From a virus, in IMG/VR virus record IMGVR_UViG_3300037244_000020, positions 26,838 through 90,837 of that record: a stretch of 64,000 nt of DNA. One strand, given 5' to 3'. This document shows positions 12,219 through 28,700 of this stretch, in pieces. Numbering within the stretch: position 1 is the stretch's first letter; each line of letters begins with the position of its first letter. The notes beneath the pieces were generated by a model. That model had not been told where the DNA came from, did no database searches, and worked only from the letters and a program-made list of their open reading frames with translations. Both the position numbers and the translations under genes were made by a program.

Positions 12219-13070
12219 ATGACAGACCAGACAAACTGGCCCAAACGCGGTGACGGCATTTGTGGCATCTACGCGATTGAAAATCTCATCGACGGGAAGT
12301 TCTACGTCGGGCAGTCTGCGGACATGAGATCAAGGTGGGACGTTCACCTTTATATGCTCAGAAAAGGAACGGCGAGCACGAAATTGTTGCGCGCATGGCG
12401 AAAGCACGGTGCGGAGAATTTCAGGTTCTTTGCCGTGGAAGAATGCTCAGTCGAAGATCTTACAGCGCGAGAGCAAGCGTGGATCGACACGTTCGACGCT
12501 GTGAAGAAGGGCTACAATATCAGTCCCTTGGCGAATTGCACGCGCGGGGTGAAGCACACGGCCGAGGCCCGCGCTAACATGTCAAAGGCGCAACTTGAGA
12601 TAAACTCACGCCCCGGCGCAAAGGAGCGACGAGTAGCTGTGGCAACGAAGGCTTGGGAAGACCCGGATGCTTTAGCCCGAAAGAGCGCGGCCAGCAAGAA
12701 ATCAAGGAACAAGCCAGAGGCAAAGGCCAGGCAATCCAAGGTATCAAAGGACCAGTGGGCAGACCCGGAAGGCAGGGAGCGTCGTCTGGATGCCTTAGTA
12801 AAGTGGTGGGCAGACCCTGACGCGAAAGCTAGTAGGCTAATGCTCCTGCAGAGTGGACGCACCCCAGAGGTAGAGGCGCAAAGGAAGGAGGCCGCAAAGG
12901 CAGCGAGGAGAGCCAGTGCGATCCTCGCTGTGGAAGACGTCTTGGAGATCCGCGCCAGATACGTATTCCGATGTCCGGCAAATGGAGGGAAAGCACTCGC
13001 AAAGGAGTTCGGAGTGTCCAACACGTACATCAGCAACATTATCGTGCGAAAGGTTTGGAAGGACATCTAA
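12219..13070 (+). CDS. GIY-YIG homing endonuclease
   Basis: CGIYAIENLIDGKFYVGQS..R..H; REQAWID; GYNI; helical repeats; C-terminal HTH. Confidence 0.9.
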   Translation: MTDQTNWPKRGDGICGIYAIENLIDGKFYVGQSADMRSRWDVHLYMLRKGTASTKLLRAWRKHGAENFRFFAVEECSVEDLTAREQAWIDTFDAVKKGYNISPLANCTRGVKHTAEARANMSKAQLEINSRPGAKERRVAVATKAWEDPDALARKSAASKKSRNKPEAKARQSKVSKDQWADPEGRERRLDALVKWWADPDAKASRLMLLQSGRTPEVEAQRKEAAKAARRASAILAVEDVLEIRARYVFRCPANGGKALAKEFGVSNTYISNIIVRKVWKDI

Positions 13071-13110: not shown

Positions 13111-14583
13111 ATGAATTTGAGTCTTCATCAACGCCAATCAGAAGCTTTCACTTCGAAAGCGACGGAGATTTTGTATGGGGGCGGGTGGTGCCTCTGCTAG
13201 AAGGTTTGGCAGAGGCACCACCCGCCTTCTTCAATGAGCGCCGCAGGCGGAGGCAAGTCCCATTTGCTTCGCGTAGCGTCGATCGCATGGTGTGCCGACA
13301 TTCCGGGCATCCAAATAGCCCTGTTCCGCAGGCTCAGTGACGACATCACGAAGAACCATTTAACTGGGGTTTCCGGGTATCCCGAGCTTCTGGCCGACTG
13401 GGTGAAGGCAGGGCATGTGAAAATCAATTTTTCGGCCCGTACAATAACTTTTTGGAACGGGTCGAAGATCCATCTTTGTCACTGCCAGTACGAGTCCGAC
13501 GTATCGAAGTATCAGGGAGCAGAGTTCCAAGTTGAAATGTTTGACGAGGGAACCCACTTCTCCGAGACCATCTACAGGTACCTGCGAGGGCGGCTGCGCA
13601 TGGGCGCACTGAAACTCCCGGAAAAGTATGTTGGGATGTTTCCCCGGATTTTGATAGGGTCGAATCCTGGATCGGTCGGGCATGCCTGGGTCAAAGCGTC
13701 TTTCGTTGACATGGCGCCCCCGATGGAACTGGTGCAAATGCCGAAAAACGAAGGGGGTCTCATTCGGCAGTTCATACCCGCGAAACTGGAAGACAACCCG
13801 ACGTTGATGGAAAGCGATCCGATGTATGCGGATCGCTTGGAGGGTCTCGGTCGACCTGAACTCGTCAAAGCCCTTCGTGACGGGGACTGGAACATAGTTG
13901 CAGGGGGTATGTTCGACGACGTGTTCTCTACTAAGCACCAAGTTCTTGCCCCCTTCGAGATTCCTCGCACCTGGAGGATCGACAGGTCATTTGATTGGGG
14001 TTCAGGAAAACCCTTCGCGGTGTTGTGGTTCGCCGAGTCAGACGGGTCGTCCGTTCGCCTTGCAGACGGCTCCGAGCGTAACTTCCCACGAGGGTCGATC
14101 TTCCAGATCTCTGAGTGGTATGGCAGTAACGGCAAACCCAATGAGGGTCTGCGCATGATGAATGCGGAAATTGCACGCGGCGTGAAGGAGCGCGATTTAG
14201 CTATGAAGCGCATCGTCCATGCTGGCCCCGGCGACAACTCGATAAATGACGTAATCAACGGCACGAGCATTGCAGACGAGATGGCGCGTGCGCCGAATTA
14301 CATCCGCTGGACGCCATCTGACAAGAACCCAGGCAGCCGGAAGCACGGGTGGGACATCCTGCGAAAGCTGCTGAAGAACGCAATTGATAGGCCGCTGGAA
14401 GAGCCGGGTTTCTACATTTTCGACACCTGTCGAAACACGATCCGTACGCTTCCGGTCTTACCTCGCCACGCCACCAAAGACGGGGATCTTGACTCCGACG
14501 CGGAAGACCATATTGCAGATGCAATTCGCTACCGTGTCTCCGCCAAAAAACGCACGATGACCGTCAGCGGCCTCGCTATATAA
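13111..14583 (+). CDS. terL: Terminase large subunit, interrupted at ~13183-13239 by a 57-nt hairpin with an in-frame TAG (13198-13200); the downstream part is an ORF at 13234-14583
   Basis: 5' part LHQRQSEAF...TEILYGG and 3' part AAGGGKS, FDEG (Walker B), GSNPG, FDWG, EDHIADAIRY lie in the same frame. Confidence 0.85.
13180..13226 (+). other. Perfect 18-bp hairpin inside terL (putative recoding element)
   Basis: GGCGGGTGGTGCCTCTGC-TAGAAGGTTTG-GCAGAGGCACCACCCGCC. Confidence 0.85.
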
Positions 14584-14607
14584 TCGCGGAAAATCACAGG
14601 ACGAAAC

Positions 14608-16161
14608 ATGACCGTCAACTTCACTGCGACGACCCCTGAGGGGTTTCCGCCACCAGTCCAACAACTGATTCAAGGCAATGCTAACGACGTGCGCGAACCA
14701 AGCCGCGTCGTGCAGAACATGATGGTCAACTGGCTCAAGGTCACGACGTTGCTCGGCGGCACCAAGGCGATGCGGGAGGCTGCGACCATCTTCCTCCCCA
14801 AGTGGCGCCGGGAAGAGCCGAATGACTACGCGCTGCGCCTGAAGACGACGGTGTTGTTCAACTGCTTCGGCCATACGGTAGACGGCCTAGGCGGCAAGCC
14901 TTTCGTGCGGCCGCTGGGCTGGTCGACGGATATGTCTCCAGAGGTTGAGGCGTGGTTCCCCAACATCGACCTGACGGGTCGCAGCTTTCACGTCTTCGCG
15001 CAGGAAGTCTTCAAGTTCTCACTTGCCTACGGCCTGTCGCATGTGCTGATTGACTATCCGGTGACTGCGGGGAAGGTGCGTACCGTCGCTGATGAAAAAG
15101 CGATCGGCGCCCGCCCCTACCTAGTCCACGTCAAGGCCAACCAGATTCTCGGCTGGCGCTCGACGATGAAAAATGGCGGCGAAGTGCTGACGCAAGTTCG
15201 CATCCTTGAGACCTGCGAAGTGGAAGATGGCCCGTTTGCCACGCGAACCGTCGAGCAGGTCCGCGTGTTGGAGCCGGGAACGTGGACGACCTACCGGCTA
15301 AAGCCCAAGCAGGCGCTTGTCACTCAGATCAGCCCGTCATCCAATGATCCGCAAGAGTGGGCGGTGTTCGATAGCGGCACCACGTCGCTCGACTACATCC
15401 CGCTCATCACTTTTTACGCACGCCGTACAGGTTTCATGACGGCGGACTCGCCGCTAATCGACATCGCGGACCTGAATATCCTGCACTGGCAGGTCGGGTC
15501 AGACATGTATTCGGTGCTGCACACCGCGAGCGTGCCGATTTTGACGATCACCGGCGTCGAAGGCAATGACGATGGCGAAGCGACTCTGGAAATCGGCACG
15601 GCGTCGGCGCTGAAGTTACCACAGGGCGCAACGGCACGCTTTACAGAGCACAGCGGGAAGGCTGTCGGGTCGGCGCTGACCGCACTCGGCACGATGGAAG
15701 AGCAGATGCGTCTGCTCGGTGCCGAGTTGCTTGTGAAGAAGCCGGGGCAGGCGACCGCGACGCAGGCTACGCTCGACACGAGCCAGCAGCGGTCGGAACT
15801 CCAGGCTATCACTAGCGTATTCGAGGATACGTTGGATCAGATCGTCGGGGTCATGGCGGCATGGGGCAATATCCAGAACTTCACGGGCAACATGCAGGTC
15901 TATGACGACTTCCTGCTCGCGGCCGACGACGCGGTGCAAGAAGCGCTGCTATTCTCGATCGTGACGGCAGGTCTGCTCTCGCCGCAGTCGTTCTTTGAAG
16001 CCATGCAGCGGCGTAACGTGTATGACACTGACATGACTTGGGAGCAAGAGCAGGAGCGTATCAAGGCGCAGCCGCTGCCAGCGCCGTCCCTGCTGCAACC
16101 GAAGGTGGCAGGCATTCCGAAGGTGGCGTCAAGTTCTACTTTGGCGCAGTTGAGTGATTGA
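14608..16161 (+). CDS. Portal protein (DUF4055-like)
   Basis: LLGGTKAMREAATIFLPKW..E...Y..RL; SPLIDIADLNILHWQ; follows terL. Confidence 0.85.
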   Translation: MTVNFTATTPEGFPPPVQQLIQGNANDVREPSRVVQNMMVNWLKVTTLLGGTKAMREAATIFLPKWRREEPNDYALRLKTTVLFNCFGHTVDGLGGKPFVRPLGWSTDMSPEVEAWFPNIDLTGRSFHVFAQEVFKFSLAYGLSHVLIDYPVTAGKVRTVADEKAIGARPYLVHVKANQILGWRSTMKNGGEVLTQVRILETCEVEDGPFATRTVEQVRVLEPGTWTTYRLKPKQALVTQISPSSNDPQEWAVFDSGTTSLDYIPLITFYARRTGFMTADSPLIDIADLNILHWQVGSDMYSVLHTASVPILTITGVEGNDDGEATLEIGTASALKLPQGATARFTEHSGKAVGSALTALGTMEEQMRLLGAELLVKKPGQATATQATLDTSQQRSELQAITSVFEDTLDQIVGVMAAWGNIQNFTGNMQVYDDFLLAADDAVQEALLFSIVTAGLLSPQSFFEAMQRRNVYDTDMTWEQEQERIKAQPLPAPSLLQPKVAGIPKVASSSTLAQLSD

Positions 16162-17128: not shown

Positions 17129-17238
17129 TTCTGTAAAATTTGGTATGATGCGGGCATTTGCTAGCGTGTGGACACAGGCTAGCGCAACGGGCGGGATCGC
17201 CTTTTATTTAAAGCCGGATGGCTGAAGGAAAGCTGGAC

Positions 17239-18054
17239 ATGAAGCTCAAGCTCGACGAAGAAGGTCACGCAGTACTGGTGGACGGTAAGCCGGTTTATGT
17301 GCATGACGACGGTAAAGAAATTCCGTTCGATGCAGCGCGTACGGTGGAAACGATCAGCCGCCTGAATGGCGAAGCGAAGAACCACCGGGAAGCGAAGGAA
17401 GCGGCAGAGACTCAATTGGGCGCGATGAAGGATCAGGTCAAGGTGTTTGAAGGTCTGGACCCGAAGTCGGCGCGCGAGGCACTGCAAAAGCTCAAAGACA
17501 TCGGCGACGGCAAGCTCATCGAAAGCGGCAAGTTGGACGAAGTGCGCTCGGCAGCAACGAAAGAATACGAAGTGCGGCTCGCAGCGCTGCAAGCTGAGTA
17601 TGGCGAGAAGGAAGGCAAGCTGGTAGCAGACCGCGAGGCGCTGCAAGGCCATCTGAATAACGAGATCATTGGCGGTAGCTTCGCGCGTTCGAAGTTTATC
17701 CAAGAGAAGATCGCGGTACCGGTGGACATGATTCAGGCGACGTTTGGCAAGAATTTCAAGGTAGAAGACGGTAAACTGGTGGCGGTGGATGCGCAGGGCA
17801 ACAAGATTTTCTCGCGCGCCCGGCCAGGTGAGTTGGCAGATTTCGACGAAGCGATGGGTTCGCTCGTCGAGCAGTACTCCAGTCGAGACCATATTCTGAA
17901 GGCTTCGGGAGCAAGCGGCTCGGGGGCGGCCGCTTCGGCAGGGGGTAGTGGCAGTAAGGACGGCAAGAGCATGACGCGAACGGCGTTTAATCAGCTTCAT
18001 CCAATGGACCAGATGAAGACGATCAAATCCGGGGTCAAGATTGCGGACGAATAA
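17239..18054 (+). CDS. Capsid scaffolding protein
   Basis: MKLKLDEEGHAVLVDGKPVYVHDDGKEIPFD; coiled coil; precedes the capsid gene. Confidence 0.8.
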   Translation: MKLKLDEEGHAVLVDGKPVYVHDDGKEIPFDAARTVETISRLNGEAKNHREAKEAAETQLGAMKDQVKVFEGLDPKSAREALQKLKDIGDGKLIESGKLDEVRSAATKEYEVRLAALQAEYGEKEGKLVADREALQGHLNNEIIGGSFARSKFIQEKIAVPVDMIQATFGKNFKVEDGKLVAVDAQGNKIFSRARPGELADFDEAMGSLVEQYSSRDHILKASGASGSGAAASAGGSGSKDGKSMTRTAFNQLHPMDQMKTIKSGVKIADE

Positions 18055-18078
18055 TTTTTCAAAAGAGGATTGACCACT

Positions 18079-19221
18079 GTGGCAAATACACTGACCGGGC
18101 TTCTCCCGACTCTTTATGAATCGCTGGATATCGTTTCGCGAGAGCAGGTCGGGTTCATCCCGTCTGTCGCGATGGACGCGAGCGCCGAACGTGCAGCGGT
18201 GGGTCAACAGATCCTCGTTCCGATCACGCCGGCGTCGCAGTCCTACGCCGTCACGCCGGGTGTGACCGCACCGAACACGGGGGATCAGATCATCGGTAAC
18301 ACGCCGATCACGATCTCGGCGTCCAACGCAGTGGCGATTCGCTGGAACGGTGAAGAACAGCGCGGCATCAACACTGGCCCAGGCTACACGAACATCAAGA
18401 ACAACCAGATCGTGCAGGCGATGCGCACGCTGTGCAATGGCATCGAACTGCTGGTTGCGCAGACGGCCTACCTCGGTGCGTCGCGGGCAAGCGGCACTGC
18501 AGGCGCTACGCCGTTCGCGTCGGATCTGTCGGCAACCGCCAATTCGCGCAAGATTCTGGCGGATAACGGCGCACCGCTGTCGGACATCCATCTGACGATG
18601 AACACGACCGCTGGCGCGAAAATGCGCACGCTGACGCAATTGACGAAGGCGAATGAAGCAGCCGACGACACGATGCTGCGTCAAGGTGTACTGCTCGACG
18701 TCCATGGCTTCGAGATCCGTGAATCGGCACAGATCCAGTCGACGACCAAGGGCACGGGTGCTAGTTACGTGACCAACGGTGCGGCGGTAGTCGGCCAGAC
18801 TGTGATCCCTCTGATTACGGGTACGGGCACGATTGTTGCTGGTGATGTCGTAACTTTCGCAGGGGATCCGAACCTCTACGTGGTGGCGGCGGGCGGCGGC
18901 ATTGCTGCTCCGGGGTCTATCACGATCAACAAGCCGGGTCTTCTGACGAATGTTTCCGGCAGTACCGCCGTTACGGTTGGAGGCTCGTATACGCCGAACT
19001 TGGCCTATCACCGAAATTCAATCGCGTTGGTCACGCGCAGCCCCGCGCTCCCCATCGAAGGGGATATGGCGGTGGACCGGGTGACGATCATCGACCCGCG
19101 CAGCGGCTTGGCATTCGATGTTGCGCAATATTTACAATATCGTCAGGTGTTGACGGAAATCTCGATTGCGTACGGCGTGGCTGTCATAAAGCCAGAACAT
19201 GTGACGACGCTTTTGGGCTAG
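18079..19221 (+). CDS. Major capsid protein (P22-like coat with inserted domain)
   Basis: ANTLTGLLPTLYESLDIVSRE; C-terminal IAYGVAVIKPEH; position; followed by a terminator. Confidence 0.88.
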   Translation: MANTLTGLLPTLYESLDIVSREQVGFIPSVAMDASAERAAVGQQILVPITPASQSYAVTPGVTAPNTGDQIIGNTPITISASNAVAIRWNGEEQRGINTGPGYTNIKNNQIVQAMRTLCNGIELLVAQTAYLGASRASGTAGATPFASDLSATANSRKILADNGAPLSDIHLTMNTTAGAKMRTLTQLTKANEAADDTMLRQGVLLDVHGFEIRESAQIQSTTKGTGASYVTNGAAVVGQTVIPLITGTGTIVAGDVVTFAGDPNLYVVAAGGGIAAPGSITINKPGLLTNVSGSTAVTVGGSYTPNLAYHRNSIALVTRSPALPIEGDMAVDRVTIIDPRSGLAFDVAQYLQYRQVLTEISIAYGVAVIKPEHVTTLLG

Positions 19222-19377: not shown

Positions 19378-20214
19378 GTGAACTACCAGAAGCATTACGA
19401 TACGCTGATCGATCGCGCCCGAAACCGTAAGCTTTCAGGGTATAAGGAACGCCATCACGTCATCCCTCGCTGTATGGGCGGGAGCGATGACAAGTCAAAT
19501 CTTGTGGAGTTGCTGGCGGAAGAGCATTTCGTGGGCCATCTTCTGTTGGCGCGCATCCACCCGGAAAACAGAAAGTTGGTGTTCGCTGCGAACATGATGC
19601 TGATGAACAGCCCGATGCATCATGGCGCTCGATCCAGGAACAAGAGGCATGCGTGGCTTAGAAAGGCACACGCCGAGGCAGCAAGAGCTACGCATCTAGG
19701 AGTTCCAAAGTCCCCTGAACACGTCGCCAAGGTAAGCCGGGCATTGACGGGTAAGCCAGGAACGCGGCGAGGGGCGGTCACTGCGGAGGAAACCAAGGCG
19801 AAGCAGTCCGCAGCAGCCTTCGCTAGACCTGACAAGGCTGAAAATGACGAGAAGATGCGGGAAGGCTACGCAAGGATGACGCCACAGGAGCGTACGGCGC
19901 AGGCGGGTAAGGCATGGGATACAAAGCGCGCCAACGGGAAAGATAGGGACACGCCAGAGACGAGGGCCAAGAAAAGCACGGCGGGCAGGGAGCGCTCTCA
20001 GAGAGAAACCTCAGAGGAGAAAACCGCCCGAGCTTTGAAGGCTGCAGAGTCACGCCGCCGTAACGGAAGTGACAAAGCTACGCCTGAATCCCGAGAGCGT
20101 ATGCGCCAAGCCCATCTCGGGAAGAAACAATCCTTGGAAACCGTCGCCAAACGTAAAGCCACTATAGCACGCAATAAAGCGCTCAAGGCTGTTACAATGC
20201 CGGAAAACACCTGA
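19378..20214 (+). CDS. HNH homing endonuclease with NUMOD3-like repeats
   Basis: YKERHHVIPRCMGGSDDKSNLVELLAEEHFVGHLLL. Confidence 0.88.
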   Translation: MNYQKHYDTLIDRARNRKLSGYKERHHVIPRCMGGSDDKSNLVELLAEEHFVGHLLLARIHPENRKLVFAANMMLMNSPMHHGARSRNKRHAWLRKAHAEAARATHLGVPKSPEHVAKVSRALTGKPGTRRGAVTAEETKAKQSAAAFARPDKAENDEKMREGYARMTPQERTAQAGKAWDTKRANGKDRDTPETRAKKSTAGRERSQRETSEEKTARALKAAESRRRNGSDKATPESRERMRQAHLGKKQSLETVAKRKATIARNKALKAVTMPENT

Positions 20215-22101: not shown

Positions 22102-22565
22102 TGGCAGATTTCGCTGCTCAGATTCGAGCGTTCCAAGACAAAGTGCGACGCAACATTGACATCGTCGTTCAGGAGTCGACGGCTGAGATCGCGGCCGAGC
22201 TTGTAAGCCGCACGCCGATAGACATCACGACACTGCGCGCGAATTGGCAGTTCACGATCGGGGCGCCGTCTGGGGAAGACTTCCCGGGAGCGGCAGACGA
22301 GTCGCCGGAGGGGTCTACTACAGCAGCGAAGCTGGGGAGCGAGATCAGGGAAGTGCCTGCGGGTTCCGTGACCTACGTAGTGAACAACAGGCCGTATATG
22401 CCGATGATTGAATATGGCCTGTACACCGGCGGAACTAGCGGCAAACGCCGCAGCAGCAAGACTATCAACGGCTTCTCCACGCAAGCACCAGCAGGCGTGC
22501 GCGACGTGACCGCCATCGGATGGCAAACCTTTGTTAAAAACGCTATCGCCAAAATAATTACATGA
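22101..22565 (+). CDS. Neck/tail completion protein (HK97 gp10-like)
   Basis: TPIDITTLRANW; NNRPY..IEYG; STQAPAG. Confidence 0.8.
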   Translation: MADFAAQIRAFQDKVRRNIDIVVQESTAEIAAELVSRTPIDITTLRANWQFTIGAPSGEDFPGAADESPEGSTTAAKLGSEIREVPAGSVTYVVNNRPYMPMIEYGLYTGGTSGKRRSSKTINGFSTQAPAGVRDVTAIGWQTFVKNAIAKIIT

Positions 22566-22978
22566 ATTCAGACATCCGGGAAGCCTTCGAGACGCGCATC
22601 GCAGCATTTGCCGCCGCGCAGAAACCGCCGCTGCCGATCGCGTGGGAGAACACGTCCTACACACCTTCGCCGAGCGTCGCGTACTTACGATGCGCCATGC
22701 TTCCGGCCGTGACGCAGAATCCGTCGATGGGCGCTCCGCACGTGCGGCTGGTGGGTCTGTACCAGGTGAATGTGTACGGAATTCAAGATGAGGGACCGGC
22801 CGGTGCGGAAGCCATTGCAGATGCCATAATCGCGTTGTTTCCGCGCGGCGGCATGGTGCAGAACGGCGTGATTGTCAATATCGACACAACGGGGTCGCGA
22901 GCACAAGGCTTGAACGACATCAACGGGTTCTTCTTTATCCCGGTACGAGTCAAGTATCGCGAAGATGTTTTGAGTTGA
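22562..22978 (+). CDS. Tail terminator protein (DUF4128-like)
   Basis: IAWEN; GLYQVNV; ADAIIALF. Confidence 0.8.
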   Translation: MNSDIREAFETRIAAFAAAQKPPLPIAWENTSYTPSPSVAYLRCAMLPAVTQNPSMGAPHVRLVGLYQVNVYGIQDEGPAGAEAIADAIIALFPRGGMVQNGVIVNIDTTGSRAQGLNDINGFFFIPVRVKYREDVLS

Positions 22979-23054
22979 CGCGGAAAGGTTGCGTACAGCG
23001 CTTTAACGTTGTACAGTAGATTCTCGAACCCACCCTTAGACGAAGCCCGCGCCC

Positions 23055-23519
23055 ATGAAAGATACCCTTGAAAGTTTTCTTCCCAAGATCCAAGAGTCAC
23101 TAGATATCGCGTCACGTGATTTGAACTGGCTCTCAGACATTACTCTCGACGCCAGCGACGAGAAGGTAGCGAAAGGCAGCAAAACTGCGGGAGAGTGCGG
23201 GAGCGTAACTATCTCTCAAGCTATGTATGTTGCGCTTCCAGTTACTCCCCCGCTCTATAAGGCTAGTGAAGATCCACGGTATCTGGAACGACACCACGTG
23301 ACGCACGCCTTCAAGACACTCTTCGAAGCCGTCGAGGCAGAGATTGCTGAAGGGTCAACAGTGCTCGCTACCCGCCTTCCTGACGTTCCTGACATTGTAA
23401 TAAATTCAGCCGTGGTTACTGATAAGCGCAGCGGTATCTCATTTTGTATTTGGGACTACGGCCACCCACCTCTGGGGCGTGTGCGCTACACGGTCAATAT
23501 CGCTTACGGCGTAGCCTGA
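23055..23519 (+). CDS. Internally deleted paralog of the major capsid protein
   Basis: ESLDIASRD/LDASDE match the capsid N-terminus; DKRSGISF...NIAYGVA matches the C-terminus; candidate promoter TTGCGT-N17-TACAGT at 22989-23017. Confidence 0.75.
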   Translation: MKDTLESFLPKIQESLDIASRDLNWLSDITLDASDEKVAKGSKTAGECGSVTISQAMYVALPVTPPLYKASEDPRYLERHHVTHAFKTLFEAVEAEIAEGSTVLATRLPDVPDIVINSAVVTDKRSGISFCIWDYGHPPLGRVRYTVNIAYGVA

Positions 23520-23600
23520 CTAGACAAGCAGGTAATTCCCCTGTGAAGCGCGTTTTGAGCTAAAATCGCGCGAAAGTCTATACTTCACAGGGGAAGATTC

Positions 23601-24821
23601 ATGGGTTTGATCGCCGTTGGCGTATCCAAGCAGCTAATTTTCGCGAAGGAGACCACTTTCGCTGTGGAGGCTCCTGCGGCATCAGGCCAGCTTTTGCGCC
23701 GCACCACCAGTAACTTGGACTTGGCGAAGAAGACTTACAAGTCGACGGAAATTCGCCCGGACTATCAGCGTTCTGACTTCCGCCATGGCACGCGCTCTGT
23801 GACCGGCACGATCTCCGATGAATTGTCGGTTGGCACGTTCGAAGCGTTCATGGCCTCCGCAATGCGCCAAGCGTGGCAGACGCCAGCTACGAGTGGTCCG
23901 ATCACGGTCATCACGGCGCAAGCAACCGCCCCGCAATTCGCGCGTTCGGCAGGATCATTTCTGACGGATGGGTTTAAGATCGGTGACGTGGTGCGCTGGT
24001 CGGGATTCTCTACGGGCGGCGCGACGGCGAACAACGCCAAGAACTTCCTGATCACGGCGCTCGATGCGACCGACATGACGGGCGTATTCCTGAATAACGA
24101 TCCAGTTGCGCCGGACGTCGCAGGAGACTCGGTCACCTGTTCCGTGGTGGGCAAGAAGACGTGGATTCCGACGACCGGCCACACGCGGGATTCGTACACG
24201 ATCGAGCACAGCTACACGGACATCAGCCAGAGCCAAGTGTTCACGGGCTGCCGCATCAGCCAGATGACGGTCAAGCTGCCGTCAACGGGCTTGGCTACCG
24301 TGGACTTCCCGGTCCTCGGCATTAACGGCACCGAGACGGCCGGGGCGTATTTCACCACCCCGGCTGCGCCTTCTACCGGCAAGATTCTTGCAGCGGTCAA
24401 CGGGGCGATGTACGTGGGCGGGGTGCAGGTCGCTGTGGTGACATCGATTGACTTCACGGTCAACGGCAATATGACGACTGGCGACGTGGTCGGCTCCAAT
24501 GTGGCGCCGGACATCTTCCCAGGTTCCATCGACGTGACCGGCACGATCTCTGCGTACTTCGAGGATGAGACGTTCCAATCCGCGTTCTATAACGAAACGG
24601 AAGTGGCAGTAGTCGTGGCGCTGACGGCTGACAATACGCCGACTGCGGACTTCCAAGTCTACAGCTTCCCACGCTGCAAGTTCAACGGCGCGACGAAGAA
24701 CGACGGTGAAGTGGGGCTGGTGCAGTCGGTACCGTTCGTGGCGCTGCTCAACAACGCAGGGGGCGCTGCTGCTCCTACGCTGCTCACCACGATGTCGATT
24801 CAAGACTCGGCGGCTGTCTAA
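23601..24821 (+). CDS. Major tail tube protein
   Basis: LRRTTSNLDL.K..S.EIR.D; FTGCRIS; position before the chaperones and tape measure. Confidence 0.85.
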   Translation: MGLIAVGVSKQLIFAKETTFAVEAPAASGQLLRRTTSNLDLAKKTYKSTEIRPDYQRSDFRHGTRSVTGTISDELSVGTFEAFMASAMRQAWQTPATSGPITVITAQATAPQFARSAGSFLTDGFKIGDVVRWSGFSTGGATANNAKNFLITALDATDMTGVFLNNDPVAPDVAGDSVTCSVVGKKTWIPTTGHTRDSYTIEHSYTDISQSQVFTGCRISQMTVKLPSTGLATVDFPVLGINGTETAGAYFTTPAAPSTGKILAAVNGAMYVGGVQVAVVTSIDFTVNGNMTTGDVVGSNVAPDIFPGSIDVTGTISAYFEDETFQSAFYNETEVAVVVALTADNTPTADFQVYSFPRCKFNGATKNDGEVGLVQSVPFVALLNNAGGAAAPTLLTTMSIQDSAAV

Positions 24822-25761: not shown

Positions 25762-28700
25762 GTGGACATTGCCCAACTCGGCCTTTCAGTCGACTCAACG
25801 TTGGCGGTCAAGGGCGCTGGCGAGGTCAGAAGCGCCCTCGACGGGGTTACGGCCAGCGCGGATAACGCGACCGCCTCCGTCGGGAGGCTGGCAGGTGCCA
25901 CGTCTTCAGCCAGCGCTGCACAGAGCGCCGCCGCCACGGCGACCGAGAGCGCTGCGACGTCCACATCGTCAGCGGCGACCGCTGCGGAGCGCCTGCTTGC
26001 CTCTCTCCAAAGGCAGATCGATCTGTACGCAGCCACGGACGCAGCCATTGCATCCTACAACGCGTCAGCAGCCAAGGCGACAGAGTCGCAGACAGCACAG
26101 ATCGAAGCGTCAGCCGCGATGATCAGCCAGTTGCAGGCCGAAGGTGCGCAGCGCGCACAGTACTATGCGCAAGTGGAGGCGTCAGCCGCCGCTGGCGATA
26201 AATTCATTGCGAGCCTGAAGACGCAGGTAGCCACGATGAATCTGACGAGGGCGGAACTCCTTGCCTACAAGGCGGATCAGCTAGGCGTGGCGGAAGCCGC
26301 CGCGCCGCTGATTGCCGCACTCACTGCGTCAGGAGCTGCCGCCGCTACCGCTGGGGAAAGCGCGGCGGCGGCGAGCGCGCGGTTTCAGGCTATTGCTGCA
26401 GCGGGCGTGGAATGGGCCGCTGCTAATTCTACGGTAACCGGGTCTATAGAGGGGCTGGCGGCAGCCAACGGCGTCGCTGAAAAGTCCGTCGCAAACCTAA
26501 CCGCTACGATCGAGGCTCAGAACGTATGGTTTAAGGAGACAACTGCCGAGGTGAACGCGTCGTCTGCGGCGTCTAAGGGAGCAGCGGCAGCGGCCGAGGC
26601 GCGCGCCGCTGCGGTGGACAAGGTGACCACCAGTCTTGAGCGGCAGCTTGTCGCCGCTACCGCGTCAAAATCGCAACTCGTTGAGTATGACGCGCTCGTT
26701 CTGGGGGCTACAGAGCAGGAGACAGCCTACGCTGTTGAGCTTGCCAAGGAAGTTGAGGTACGCGCTGCACAAGCTGCGCAGGGAGCTAAGATGGCGGCAG
26801 CCCTCGAAGCAGAAACTGCGGCGACCAACGGCGCAAGGGGGGCCACGGCGGCATTTACCAGTGAGATTCTCGTTCTGTTCCGTGAATTGGCACGCGGCAA
26901 TTTGACACAGTTCGCTGGCTCGCTCACGAGGTTGATCTCACTTGGTGGCGCGACTGCTCTTCTGTTCAACCCCCTGACGTTAAGCGCGCTTGCGCTCGGC
27001 GCCGCATTCGTGAAGGTCGAAAACGAAAACGCTGCGCTTGATCGGGCGCTGGCTCTGACCAACGGCTATGTGGGCGAGACCGCAGACAGCATGAATAAGA
27101 TGGCGGACGCCATATCGCAGAGTGGGGTGACTATCGGCGTGGCGAGGGACGCACTGACAGAACTCGCCGCGACGGGACGCGTGACAGGGGCCAATATTCA
27201 GCTTCTGGGGACGGCATCGGCGGAAGCGGCAACCTACTTAGGCGTCTCGACCAAGCAGATGGCAGCCGACTTCACGAAACTCGGCGACGAGCCGGTAAAG
27301 GCTGCGGTAAAGCTGAATGAGCAGTACCATTTTCTGACACAGGCCACGTTCGATGCAGCCGAGGCGCAGCATAAGCAAGGGAATGAGACCGAGGCGGCAC
27401 GAATTCTGCAAGAGGCGCTCGCCAGCTCCTTCATAAAGGCTGCGGACGACATGAAGACAAAGCAGGGACCGCTTCTAAAGTTCTGGCAGGACTTGAAGGA
27501 AACGATCAGCGGCACGGTAGAAGCGATCGGATCGATTGGCGCGACAGCGGGGCCAGCCGAGATTCTCGCGCGGGATCAGGCGAACAAGGCTGCACAGACT
27601 GCTAGAGGGCCTTTCAGTTCGTGGACTTCTGAAGATGACGCCAGACTGCAGAAAGAAGCCATGGCGGCCGTAGCAGCGATCGCAGTAGCGCGCAATAAGT
27701 CCGCAGCGGACACGGTGGAACAGCAGCGGGAAACCGCGACGCTCACCTATGACACGTGGCATAAGAATTACTGGACCAAGCAGCAAAAGGAAGCGCAGGA
27801 TCTCAAGGACTATGAAGACAAAATAGCGGGGCCACTCGGGTTAAGCGCAGCGCAGCGCGCAGCGGACGAGGCGCAGATACGAGCCAAAGATAGGCCCAAG
27901 GGCGCTGGTGCCGTCAACACCGCCGAAGCGCAAGCCGCACAGCAATCCCTAAAGGATCAGTTCACCGAAGAGCAGAAGCTGACGGCAGACAACCAGAAGA
28001 TCTTAGACGCGGACCATAAGGCGAAGCTCGTCTCGGACACCGACTTTTATACGCAGGAGAGGACGCTCGTCGCGCAGGACTTATCGCAAAAACTCGACTA
28101 CTACAGTAAGTTAGAAGCGCTGCTGAAGTCAGAATCTGAGAGTTCGAAGACGTCTAATTCGCAGAAGATCAGGGACGCGAAGCAGGTAGCCAGCTTGGAG
28201 TCAGATGCCCGCGTGGCGCAGGCCGACGCGGCGGCTAAGACGAAAGTAATTAACGACGCGGAACTAAAGGCGACGGACGATAAAACCAACGCGGTCGCGA
28301 AATATCAAGCGGTGCTGGACGCGCAGTACATAGCTGCGCAGAAGACGGCGGAAGCGCCGTTGACGACCTTTGGGCTGGGTTCGCGGCAGGCCGCGCTGGC
28401 ATCGGCCGATGCGGCGGCACAGGCAAAGGCTGCGGAGGAGATTACGAAGCTCCAGGCTGCGGCACAAGCAGCCGCACTTGCGAATCCTCAATCAGTCACG
28501 GATGCCAGCAAAAAAGCGTATGCAGACCAAGTCGCGGCGGCACAGGCGCAAGGGGACAGGCTTGTCGCGATGAACCATAAAGTCTACGACGAGGTCACTG
28601 CGCAGCAGCAAGACTGGCTCGGAGGCGCGAAAACAGCTTGGGCGAACTGGGCGGATAGCGCAAACAATACGGCGTCCCAGGCAGGCAGCACGGTCACCAC

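Follow-up and report, generated by a model that had tools for sequence, protein, structure and literature searches.

Why should a phage encode, in the middle of its tail genes, a protein that resembles a shortened version of its own capsid protein? This question is raised by a 154-aa ORF in the 64,000-nucleotide stretch of DNA analysed here (the window; positions 26,838 to 90,837 of the IMG/VR virus record IMGVR_UViG_3300037244_000020). The source record comprises 90,837 bp with direct terminal repeats (IMG/VR) and was assembled from peat metagenomes. Its late region begins with the genes for the large terminase, portal (14608-16161), head morphogenesis protein, scaffold (17218-18054), major capsid protein (MCP) and an HNH homing endonuclease, and continues with adaptor, head closure, tail completion, tail terminator, the mini-capsid ORF (referred to as the mini), tail tube, chaperone and tape measure. 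The resident MCP gene directly follows the scaffold gene, whereas the mini is encoded among the tail genes, between tail terminator and tail tube, and not, like P22-type coat proteins, beside the scaffold within the head module. The initial annotation had described the mini as a capsid paralog apparently reduced to the core domain and equipped with its own promoter, and had proposed that it acts as a decoy, an inhibitor of foreign capsid assembly or an assembly modulator. The coordinates of the relevant features are given in Table 1.

Table 1 Features of the late region around the mini gene. Positions refer to the window.
Feature	Position	Strand	Support
Resident MCP, 383 aa, P22-type HK97 fold	18070-19221	+	Pfam P22_CoatProtein 3.7e-16; phrog_283 1.1e-93
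Free-standing HNH homing endonuclease, directly 3' of the MCP gene	19378-20214		phrog_655 2.6e-51
Tail terminator, left flank of the insertion site	22562-22978	+	PF13554 2e-22; phrog_179
Upstream spacer with candidate promoter TTGCGT-N17-TACAGT (22989-23017)	22979-23054	+	
Mini-capsid gene P0001, 154 aa: N-arm helix, shortened E-loop base hairpin, spine helix, P-domain strands	23055-23519	+	
Long hairpin, 3' edge of the cassette	23536-23595	+	fold -33 kcal/mol, z -3.67
Conserved 16-nt element TAAAATCGCGCGAAAG, in the hairpin loop, upstream of the tube gene	23561-23576	+	
Tail tube, right flank of the insertion site	23601-24821	+	PF18906 5.7e-34

With respect to the host, the cultured phages with the most similar tail tube proteins infect Limnohabitans (45% identity) and Curvibacter (42%), and one MCP relative is annotated in Paraburkholderia, from which we conclude that the host likely belongs to the Burkholderiales. 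Close MCP relatives with 75-82% identity (P0006-P0024) are encoded on long contigs. No tyrosine integrase was found in the phage, and a megablast search of phage records with a 12-kb part of the window as query returned no match. Near-identical 151-nt pieces of the phage are also present in a soil metagenome of another study; the piece located inside the mini gene carries a single C>A exchange at window position 23366, which is synonymous (CTC to CTA, Leu104). No contigs joining across the mini gene were obtained from metagenome reads.

BLASTP aligned the mini with the resident MCP in two colinear blocks, i.e. mini residues 1-43 with MCP residues 4-47 (39% identity, E 6e-8) and mini residues 101-154 with MCP residues 317-371 (35% identity, E 4e-6), and both blocks recur against all of the 120 sampled MCP homologs. 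The C-terminal block was also recovered in a profile-profile comparison of mini and MCP (96.4% probability, E 1.4e-9). A multiple alignment adds the other motifs that had been listed initially, namely the strand that follows the E-loop, with the residues around ITIS, and QA.RTL versus HAF.TL in the spine helix. According to the same alignment, the mini lacks 18 and 7 residues of the E-loop (about MCP 49-66 and 73-79) as well as about 186 central residues (about MCP 131-316), which make up the A-domain and the insertion domain, and the last 12 residues of the MCP are absent, too. The proposed colinear relationship to the capsid protein is thereby corroborated, and the same applies to the loss of an early loop of about 25 residues and of about 190 central residues. 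The mini did not match any Pfam family at E ≤ 0.1 and matched phrog_283 at E 0.0088 only, with no stretch passing alone. Its homology to the P22-type coat proteins (PF11651, PHROG 283; P22 gp5, CUS-3, Sf6), which extends over the N-arm, the spine helix and the P-domain strands, is therefore documented by pairwise and profile-profile comparison and not by a significant profile match to the family. These alignments show the mini to be a true, internally deleted descendant of a P22-type MCP, without the A-domain, the insertion domain, the tip of the E-loop and the C-terminal end.

Structure models were in line with this assignment. The MCP model (pLDDT 81) matched the P22 procapsid (E 6.8e-20, TM up to 0.72). 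In this model, the N-arm helix (residues 8-26) is followed by the E-loop as a long hairpin (34-93), by the spine helix (106-135), by the A/insertion region, which is helical and rich in beta structure (about 139-314), and by the strands of the P-domain (318-372). The mini model (pLDDT 68.8, pTM 0.67; the alignment behind it is mostly composed of MCPs) contains a helix at residues 5-22, a short hairpin at 43-62, a helix at 74-98 and four strands, whereas the A-domain elements seen at about 139-314 in the MCP model are absent. Mapped onto the hairpin and the A/insertion region of the MCP model, the lost segments are predicted to be the E-loop tip and the A/insertion domains, as the initial annotation had assumed. 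All of the 50 best structural matches of the mini model in an exhaustive comparison with VIA-align are HK97-fold shells, headed by the coat proteins of CUS-3 (Z 9.4, rmsd 3.6, 128 aligned residues) and P22 (Z 8.5), so that the predicted fold is related to the capsid core. A Foldseek search of the mini model against the PDB yielded nothing at E ≤ 0.001, with capsids in the top weak rows, the single-sequence model of the mini from the ESM Atlas was poor (pLDDT 0.36) and its neighbours were uninformative, and a sequence search of the PDB with the MCP gave no relevant match. The domain reading is thus mainly based on sequence homology and the MCP model.

A full HMMER scan over 1.84 billion cluster representatives, which stand for about 15 billion proteins, identified one true relative of the mini, a protein of 152 aa (P0003; 48% identity, E 2.5e-20), which carries the same two deletions. 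It is encoded on a 1.8-kb metagenome contig (L015), also between a tail terminator gene, the product of which is 72% identical to that in the window, and a tail tube gene. Relatives beyond P0003 were found neither in a search for homologous proteins of near length nor by tblastn against 50,697 phage records, and neither in IMG/VR scans with P0001, P0003 and their alignment as queries nor in GTDB genome contigs. A repetitive protein of 2,636 aa (P0004) was rejected as a relative, its similarity being a chance match over a 28-residue stretch.

One explanation for a truncated gene copy would be that it is a functionless passenger, brought in by illegitimate recombination or homing-endonuclease traffic, which at most shields the site from endonuclease cleavage by occupying it. 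However, the comparison of both minis indicated constraint. While dN between P0001 and P0003 amounts to 0.45 and dS is saturated, the nucleotide identity at the first, second and third codon positions is 0.61, 0.70 and 0.35, respectively (chi-square p 8e-9); the corresponding values for the neighbouring terminator gene are 0.82, 0.82 and 0.51. From this codon-position pattern we conclude that the mini is kept by purifying selection. Two signs of a decaying duplicate, a dN/dS near 1 and frameshifted homologs, are not seen, since the third positions are randomised with the first and second positions conserved, and the single homolog is intact without any frameshift. The mini gene can accordingly be described as intact and diverged, as had been proposed, and two intact ORFs with motifs specific to the minis are difficult to reconcile with a passenger.

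These motifs became apparent when the minis were compared with positions that are conserved in at least 90% of the MCPs and covered by the minis (n = 75). The MCP residue is kept in both minis at 19 of these positions and in neither at 34, and several N-arm positions are among those lost, whereby MAFFT aligns mini residues 99-112 to a stretch of the MCP other than that in the BLAST register, which affects this comparison. About half of the residues that are invariant in the retained parts of P22-type coat proteins are missing. In addition, the minis share residues that are foreign to MCPs, i.e. H84 in THAF and a WDYGH loop. The loss of invariant MCP residues and the new shared motifs suggest that the minis may have a function different from that of the MCP.

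Regarding the origin of the gene, the two minis group in a single clade (SH-aLRT 95) with very long branches, which is located outside the supported clades holding the resident MCP; the exact placement of the minis is unreliable because of the long branches. When 120 MCPs are ordered by how similar they are to the minis, the resident MCP takes only places 37-48. The mini gene has a GC content of 0.516 and a GC3 of 0.516 compared to a GC3 of 0.71 for the MCP gene and 0.67-0.77 for the neighbouring genes, and the same GC3 offset between mini and neighbours is found in L015. A recent duplication of the resident MCP was rejected based on the similarity rank, the tree position and GC3. Taken together with the codon-position pattern, these data point to a single old truncation event, which was probably followed by rapid but constrained divergence.

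We also examined 120 short MCP-like proteins, 119 of which are one-ended fragments. The remaining one, a protein from E. coli (P0167, EPR7230715.1; 203 aa), has cleanly lost about MCP 140-304 in frame and was rejected as a member of the family, since this deletion is recent: P0167 shares 97.5% identity with intact coat genes of E. coli siphophages, and a single assembly is known to encode it. P0167 shows that the boundary of the lost MCP region is prone to loss, and the spontaneous appearance of an in-frame loss of the same region could be taken in favour of a passenger. However, P0167 is, to judge by its near-identity with intact genes, the picture of a recent accidental deletion, occurring as a single copy, and the minis look different.

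Further information came from the insertion site. The terminator-tube junction is without a gene in L004/L016, L017, L018, L020-22, L010, L013 and Limnohabitans phage DC31, and the empty gap measures 27-90 nt (L004, L017, L018, L020-22, L010, L013). This includes the closest relative, L004, the terminator and tube of which are 90% and 88% identical to those in the window. At the same junction, a 270-aa HNH endonuclease is encoded in L005 (3569-4381) and a putative endonuclease unrelated to it in Curvibacter phage P26059A (L026 1660-2466). The junction endonuclease of L005 is related to the HNH gene product encoded after the MCP in the window (50% identity over 104 aa, N-terminal residues of the window HNH). 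From this we conclude that selfish genes land repeatedly at the terminator-tube junction. Because the mini is missing from the junction in relatives, two of which have endonucleases there, it is, according to gene content, dispensable for building virions. As a separate observation, the C-terminal 47 residues of the L005 endonuclease match window positions 12924-13064 (51%, E 1e-10), within the final part of the gene preceding terL; both may share a DNA-binding module.

The fact that the junction takes up two unrelated endonuclease genes in relatives and that an HNH gene of the L005 family adjoins the resident MCP gene would be compatible with a passenger that arrived by such traffic. Nevertheless, the codon-position pattern renders a functionless passenger unlikely, and we give this explanation no more than a slim chance.

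The distribution of the gene also bears on the possibility that the mini has an optional, minor part in the virion or in the assembly of the phage's own head, for instance as a cementing or portal-vertex subunit that would dock by its N-arm and P-domain. Decoration-type proteins commonly differ in their presence between relatives, and the mini gene lies within the late structural row, on the same strand and with no terminator seen before it; a retained capsid core fold, as predicted by the model, would fit as well. On the other hand, the mini is absent from the closest relative and most others, its composition and codon usage are unlike those of structural genes, and it evolves faster than its structural neighbour, with 48% identity between the window and L015 compared to 72% for the terminator. 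To our knowledge, there is no solved capsid with a comparable subunit. We therefore consider a role in the phage's own virion to be improbable.

With its position between genes that are adjacent in relatives and its distinct GC3 (0.52 versus about 0.7), the mini gene resembles the morons of lambdoid and HK97-like phages. A candidate promoter lies upstream and a strong hairpin without a U-tract, a putative terminator, downstream. It differs from classic morons in that there is no tyrosine integrase, which makes expression from a lysogen doubtful. As for the promoter proposed in the initial annotation, the sequence TTGCGT-N17-TACAGT is present, but it agrees with the consensus at no more than 7 of 12 positions and was missing from the output of a consensus scan. 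At the equivalent place, L015 contains TTGACA-N17-CACACT, and the block CGTTGyACAsTAG is common to both genomes. A promoter upstream of the mini is thus plausible as a candidate. A comparison of upstream regions revealed no evident Shine-Dalgarno sequence before the mini ATG, unlike for the MCP, tube and chaperone genes.

The 5' arm of the downstream hairpin (CCCCTGTGAAG) occurs only in the two mini-bearing genomes, and the 3' arm covers the ribosome-binding site of the tail tube gene (GGGGAAG). In L015 (1620-1675), the outer stem is preserved, with two compensatory exchanges of base pairs (GA/TC for AG/CT), but the fold is no better than those of shuffled sequences. The conserved element in the loop, TAAAATCGCGCGAAAG, occurs once in the window at 0 mismatches, and its core TA.AATCGCGCGAAAG shows no variation between the window, L015, L004 and L005, about 25-40 nt before the tube start codon. 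The element probably predates the cassette and may represent the tube gene's own promoter or another regulatory site. One reading of this arrangement is that, on read-through RNA, translation of the tube would be masked by the hairpin, and that a start inside the loop would serve the tube gene. A weaker look-alike, TATAATCGCGGAAAAT, is located just before the portal gene (14579-14594).

Counter-defence genes are often accessory, patchily distributed and fast-evolving. The mini gene has all of these properties, and its candidate promoter could permit expression ahead of the coat protein. The mini could thus be an anti-defence decoy or blocker, which would bind a sensor of unassembled capsid protein without activating it or mask the coat monomers of its own phage. 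In support of this, MCP monomers are frequent triggers of bacterial immunity and activate Avs7, Avs8, Avs10 and Dsr1 (PMC13581612). However, Avs7, Avs8 and Avs10, the three MCP sensor families that were structurally modelled, all grip the face of the A-domain (PMC13581612), i.e. the very domain that is missing in the mini, which weakens the decoy for the best-described sensors. Moreover, a stoichiometric sponge is expected to be highly expressed, yet the mini gene has a low GC3 compared to the abundant structural genes and no visible Shine-Dalgarno sequence. The mini had no PADLOC match, and no phage capsid decoy was found described in the literature searched. In view of these arguments, an anti-defence role appears doubtful.

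The explanation we prefer is based on what the mini has kept and what it has lost. In P22 and HK97 capsids, the A-domain and the E-loop lock the subunits into pentons and hexons, while the surfaces of the N-arm and the P-domain make inter-capsomer and scaffold contacts. Since the A-domain and the tip of the E-loop are lost and the N-arm and P-domain are kept, the mini would be a mimic of the capsid protein that is unable to join the lattice but still offers its N-arm and P-domain surfaces. It could bind a partner of the unassembled coat protein, i.e. the scaffold, portal-proximal or neighbouring coat subunits, without the shell being extended, and might in this way interfere with capsid assembly or bias it in cells that additionally contain a related phage or a capsid-hijacking satellite. 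We put forward this action of a capsid mimic on assembly in mixed infections as a tentative hypothesis. It would go further to assume that a domain-deleted capsid copy was domesticated as a weapon or shield against co-infecting relatives or satellites, with the N-arm and P-domain as the minimal interfering module; this extension is more speculative.

A setting of mixed infections is favoured by the presence of at least one free-standing homing endonuclease gene in this genome, the HNH gene after the MCP, and by the endonucleases at the junction in relatives. Homing endonuclease genes spread only in co-infections; by this reasoning, co-infection must be common in the lineage that carries the mini. 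Interference with capsid assembly is, however, not easily reconciled with the location of the mini gene in the phage's own late structural row, where an inhibitor that is neither specific nor low in amount would risk poisoning the phage's own capsids. In addition, about half of the MCP-invariant residues of the retained part are lost, so that the ancestral contact surfaces may no longer exist. A modelled complex of the mini and the resident MCP had a score of 0.14 (mark 0.32), which speaks neither for nor against an interaction. Furthermore, the family has only two known members and, therefore, whatever the mini does is rare. The probability that is not covered by interference, decoy, virion component or passenger goes to functions outside these explanations.

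How does the mini compare to other second copies of capsid proteins? The T4 vertex protein gp24 and the size-redirecting Ccm capsid homologs (SaPIbov5/cf-PICI) are also second HK97-fold copies with a separate role, and they are among the structural matches of the mini model (7rwz Z 6.0, 1yue Z 5.0). These proteins have the fold in full and become part of shells, whereas the mini lacks the A-domain and the E-loop and is not a gene of a satellite. In terms of logic only, the mini resembles Ty1 p22 of yeast, Fv1 of mice and enJS56A1 of sheep as a capsid-derived gene that is kept by selection. In these cases, truncated or diverged capsid products affect how the capsids of related elements assemble or function; the genes are, however, eukaryotic, derived from retroelements and encode an unrelated fold. 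In the literature searched, we found no precedent in phages for a truncated capsid paralog or one without the A-domain, a capsid decoy, or an exclusion mechanism based on capsid fragments or dominant-negative capsid proteins. The architecture of this capsid paralog hence appears to be unprecedented in phages.

What stands of the initial interpretation is that the mini is a true paralog of the MCP, that its losses can be mapped to defined domains, that it is under selection and that it occupies an accessory place in the tail row. HK97-fold capsid proteins belong to the most abundant and best-studied folds, and the capsid paralogs known to us retain the fold in its entirety and are incorporated into shells. 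A form that is reduced to the N-arm and the P-domain, selected and moving as a cassette, would represent a new way in which a virus reuses a capsid gene, and the mini would be a compact natural probe of the capsid surfaces that are sufficient for partner binding. If the mini does interfere with capsid assembly or with capsid sensing, it would define a new class of genes in the conflicts between phages, between phages and satellites, and between phages and their hosts. If it was domesticated as a weapon or shield, it would be the counterpart, in viruses of prokaryotes, of the Gag-derived restriction factors of eukaryotes.
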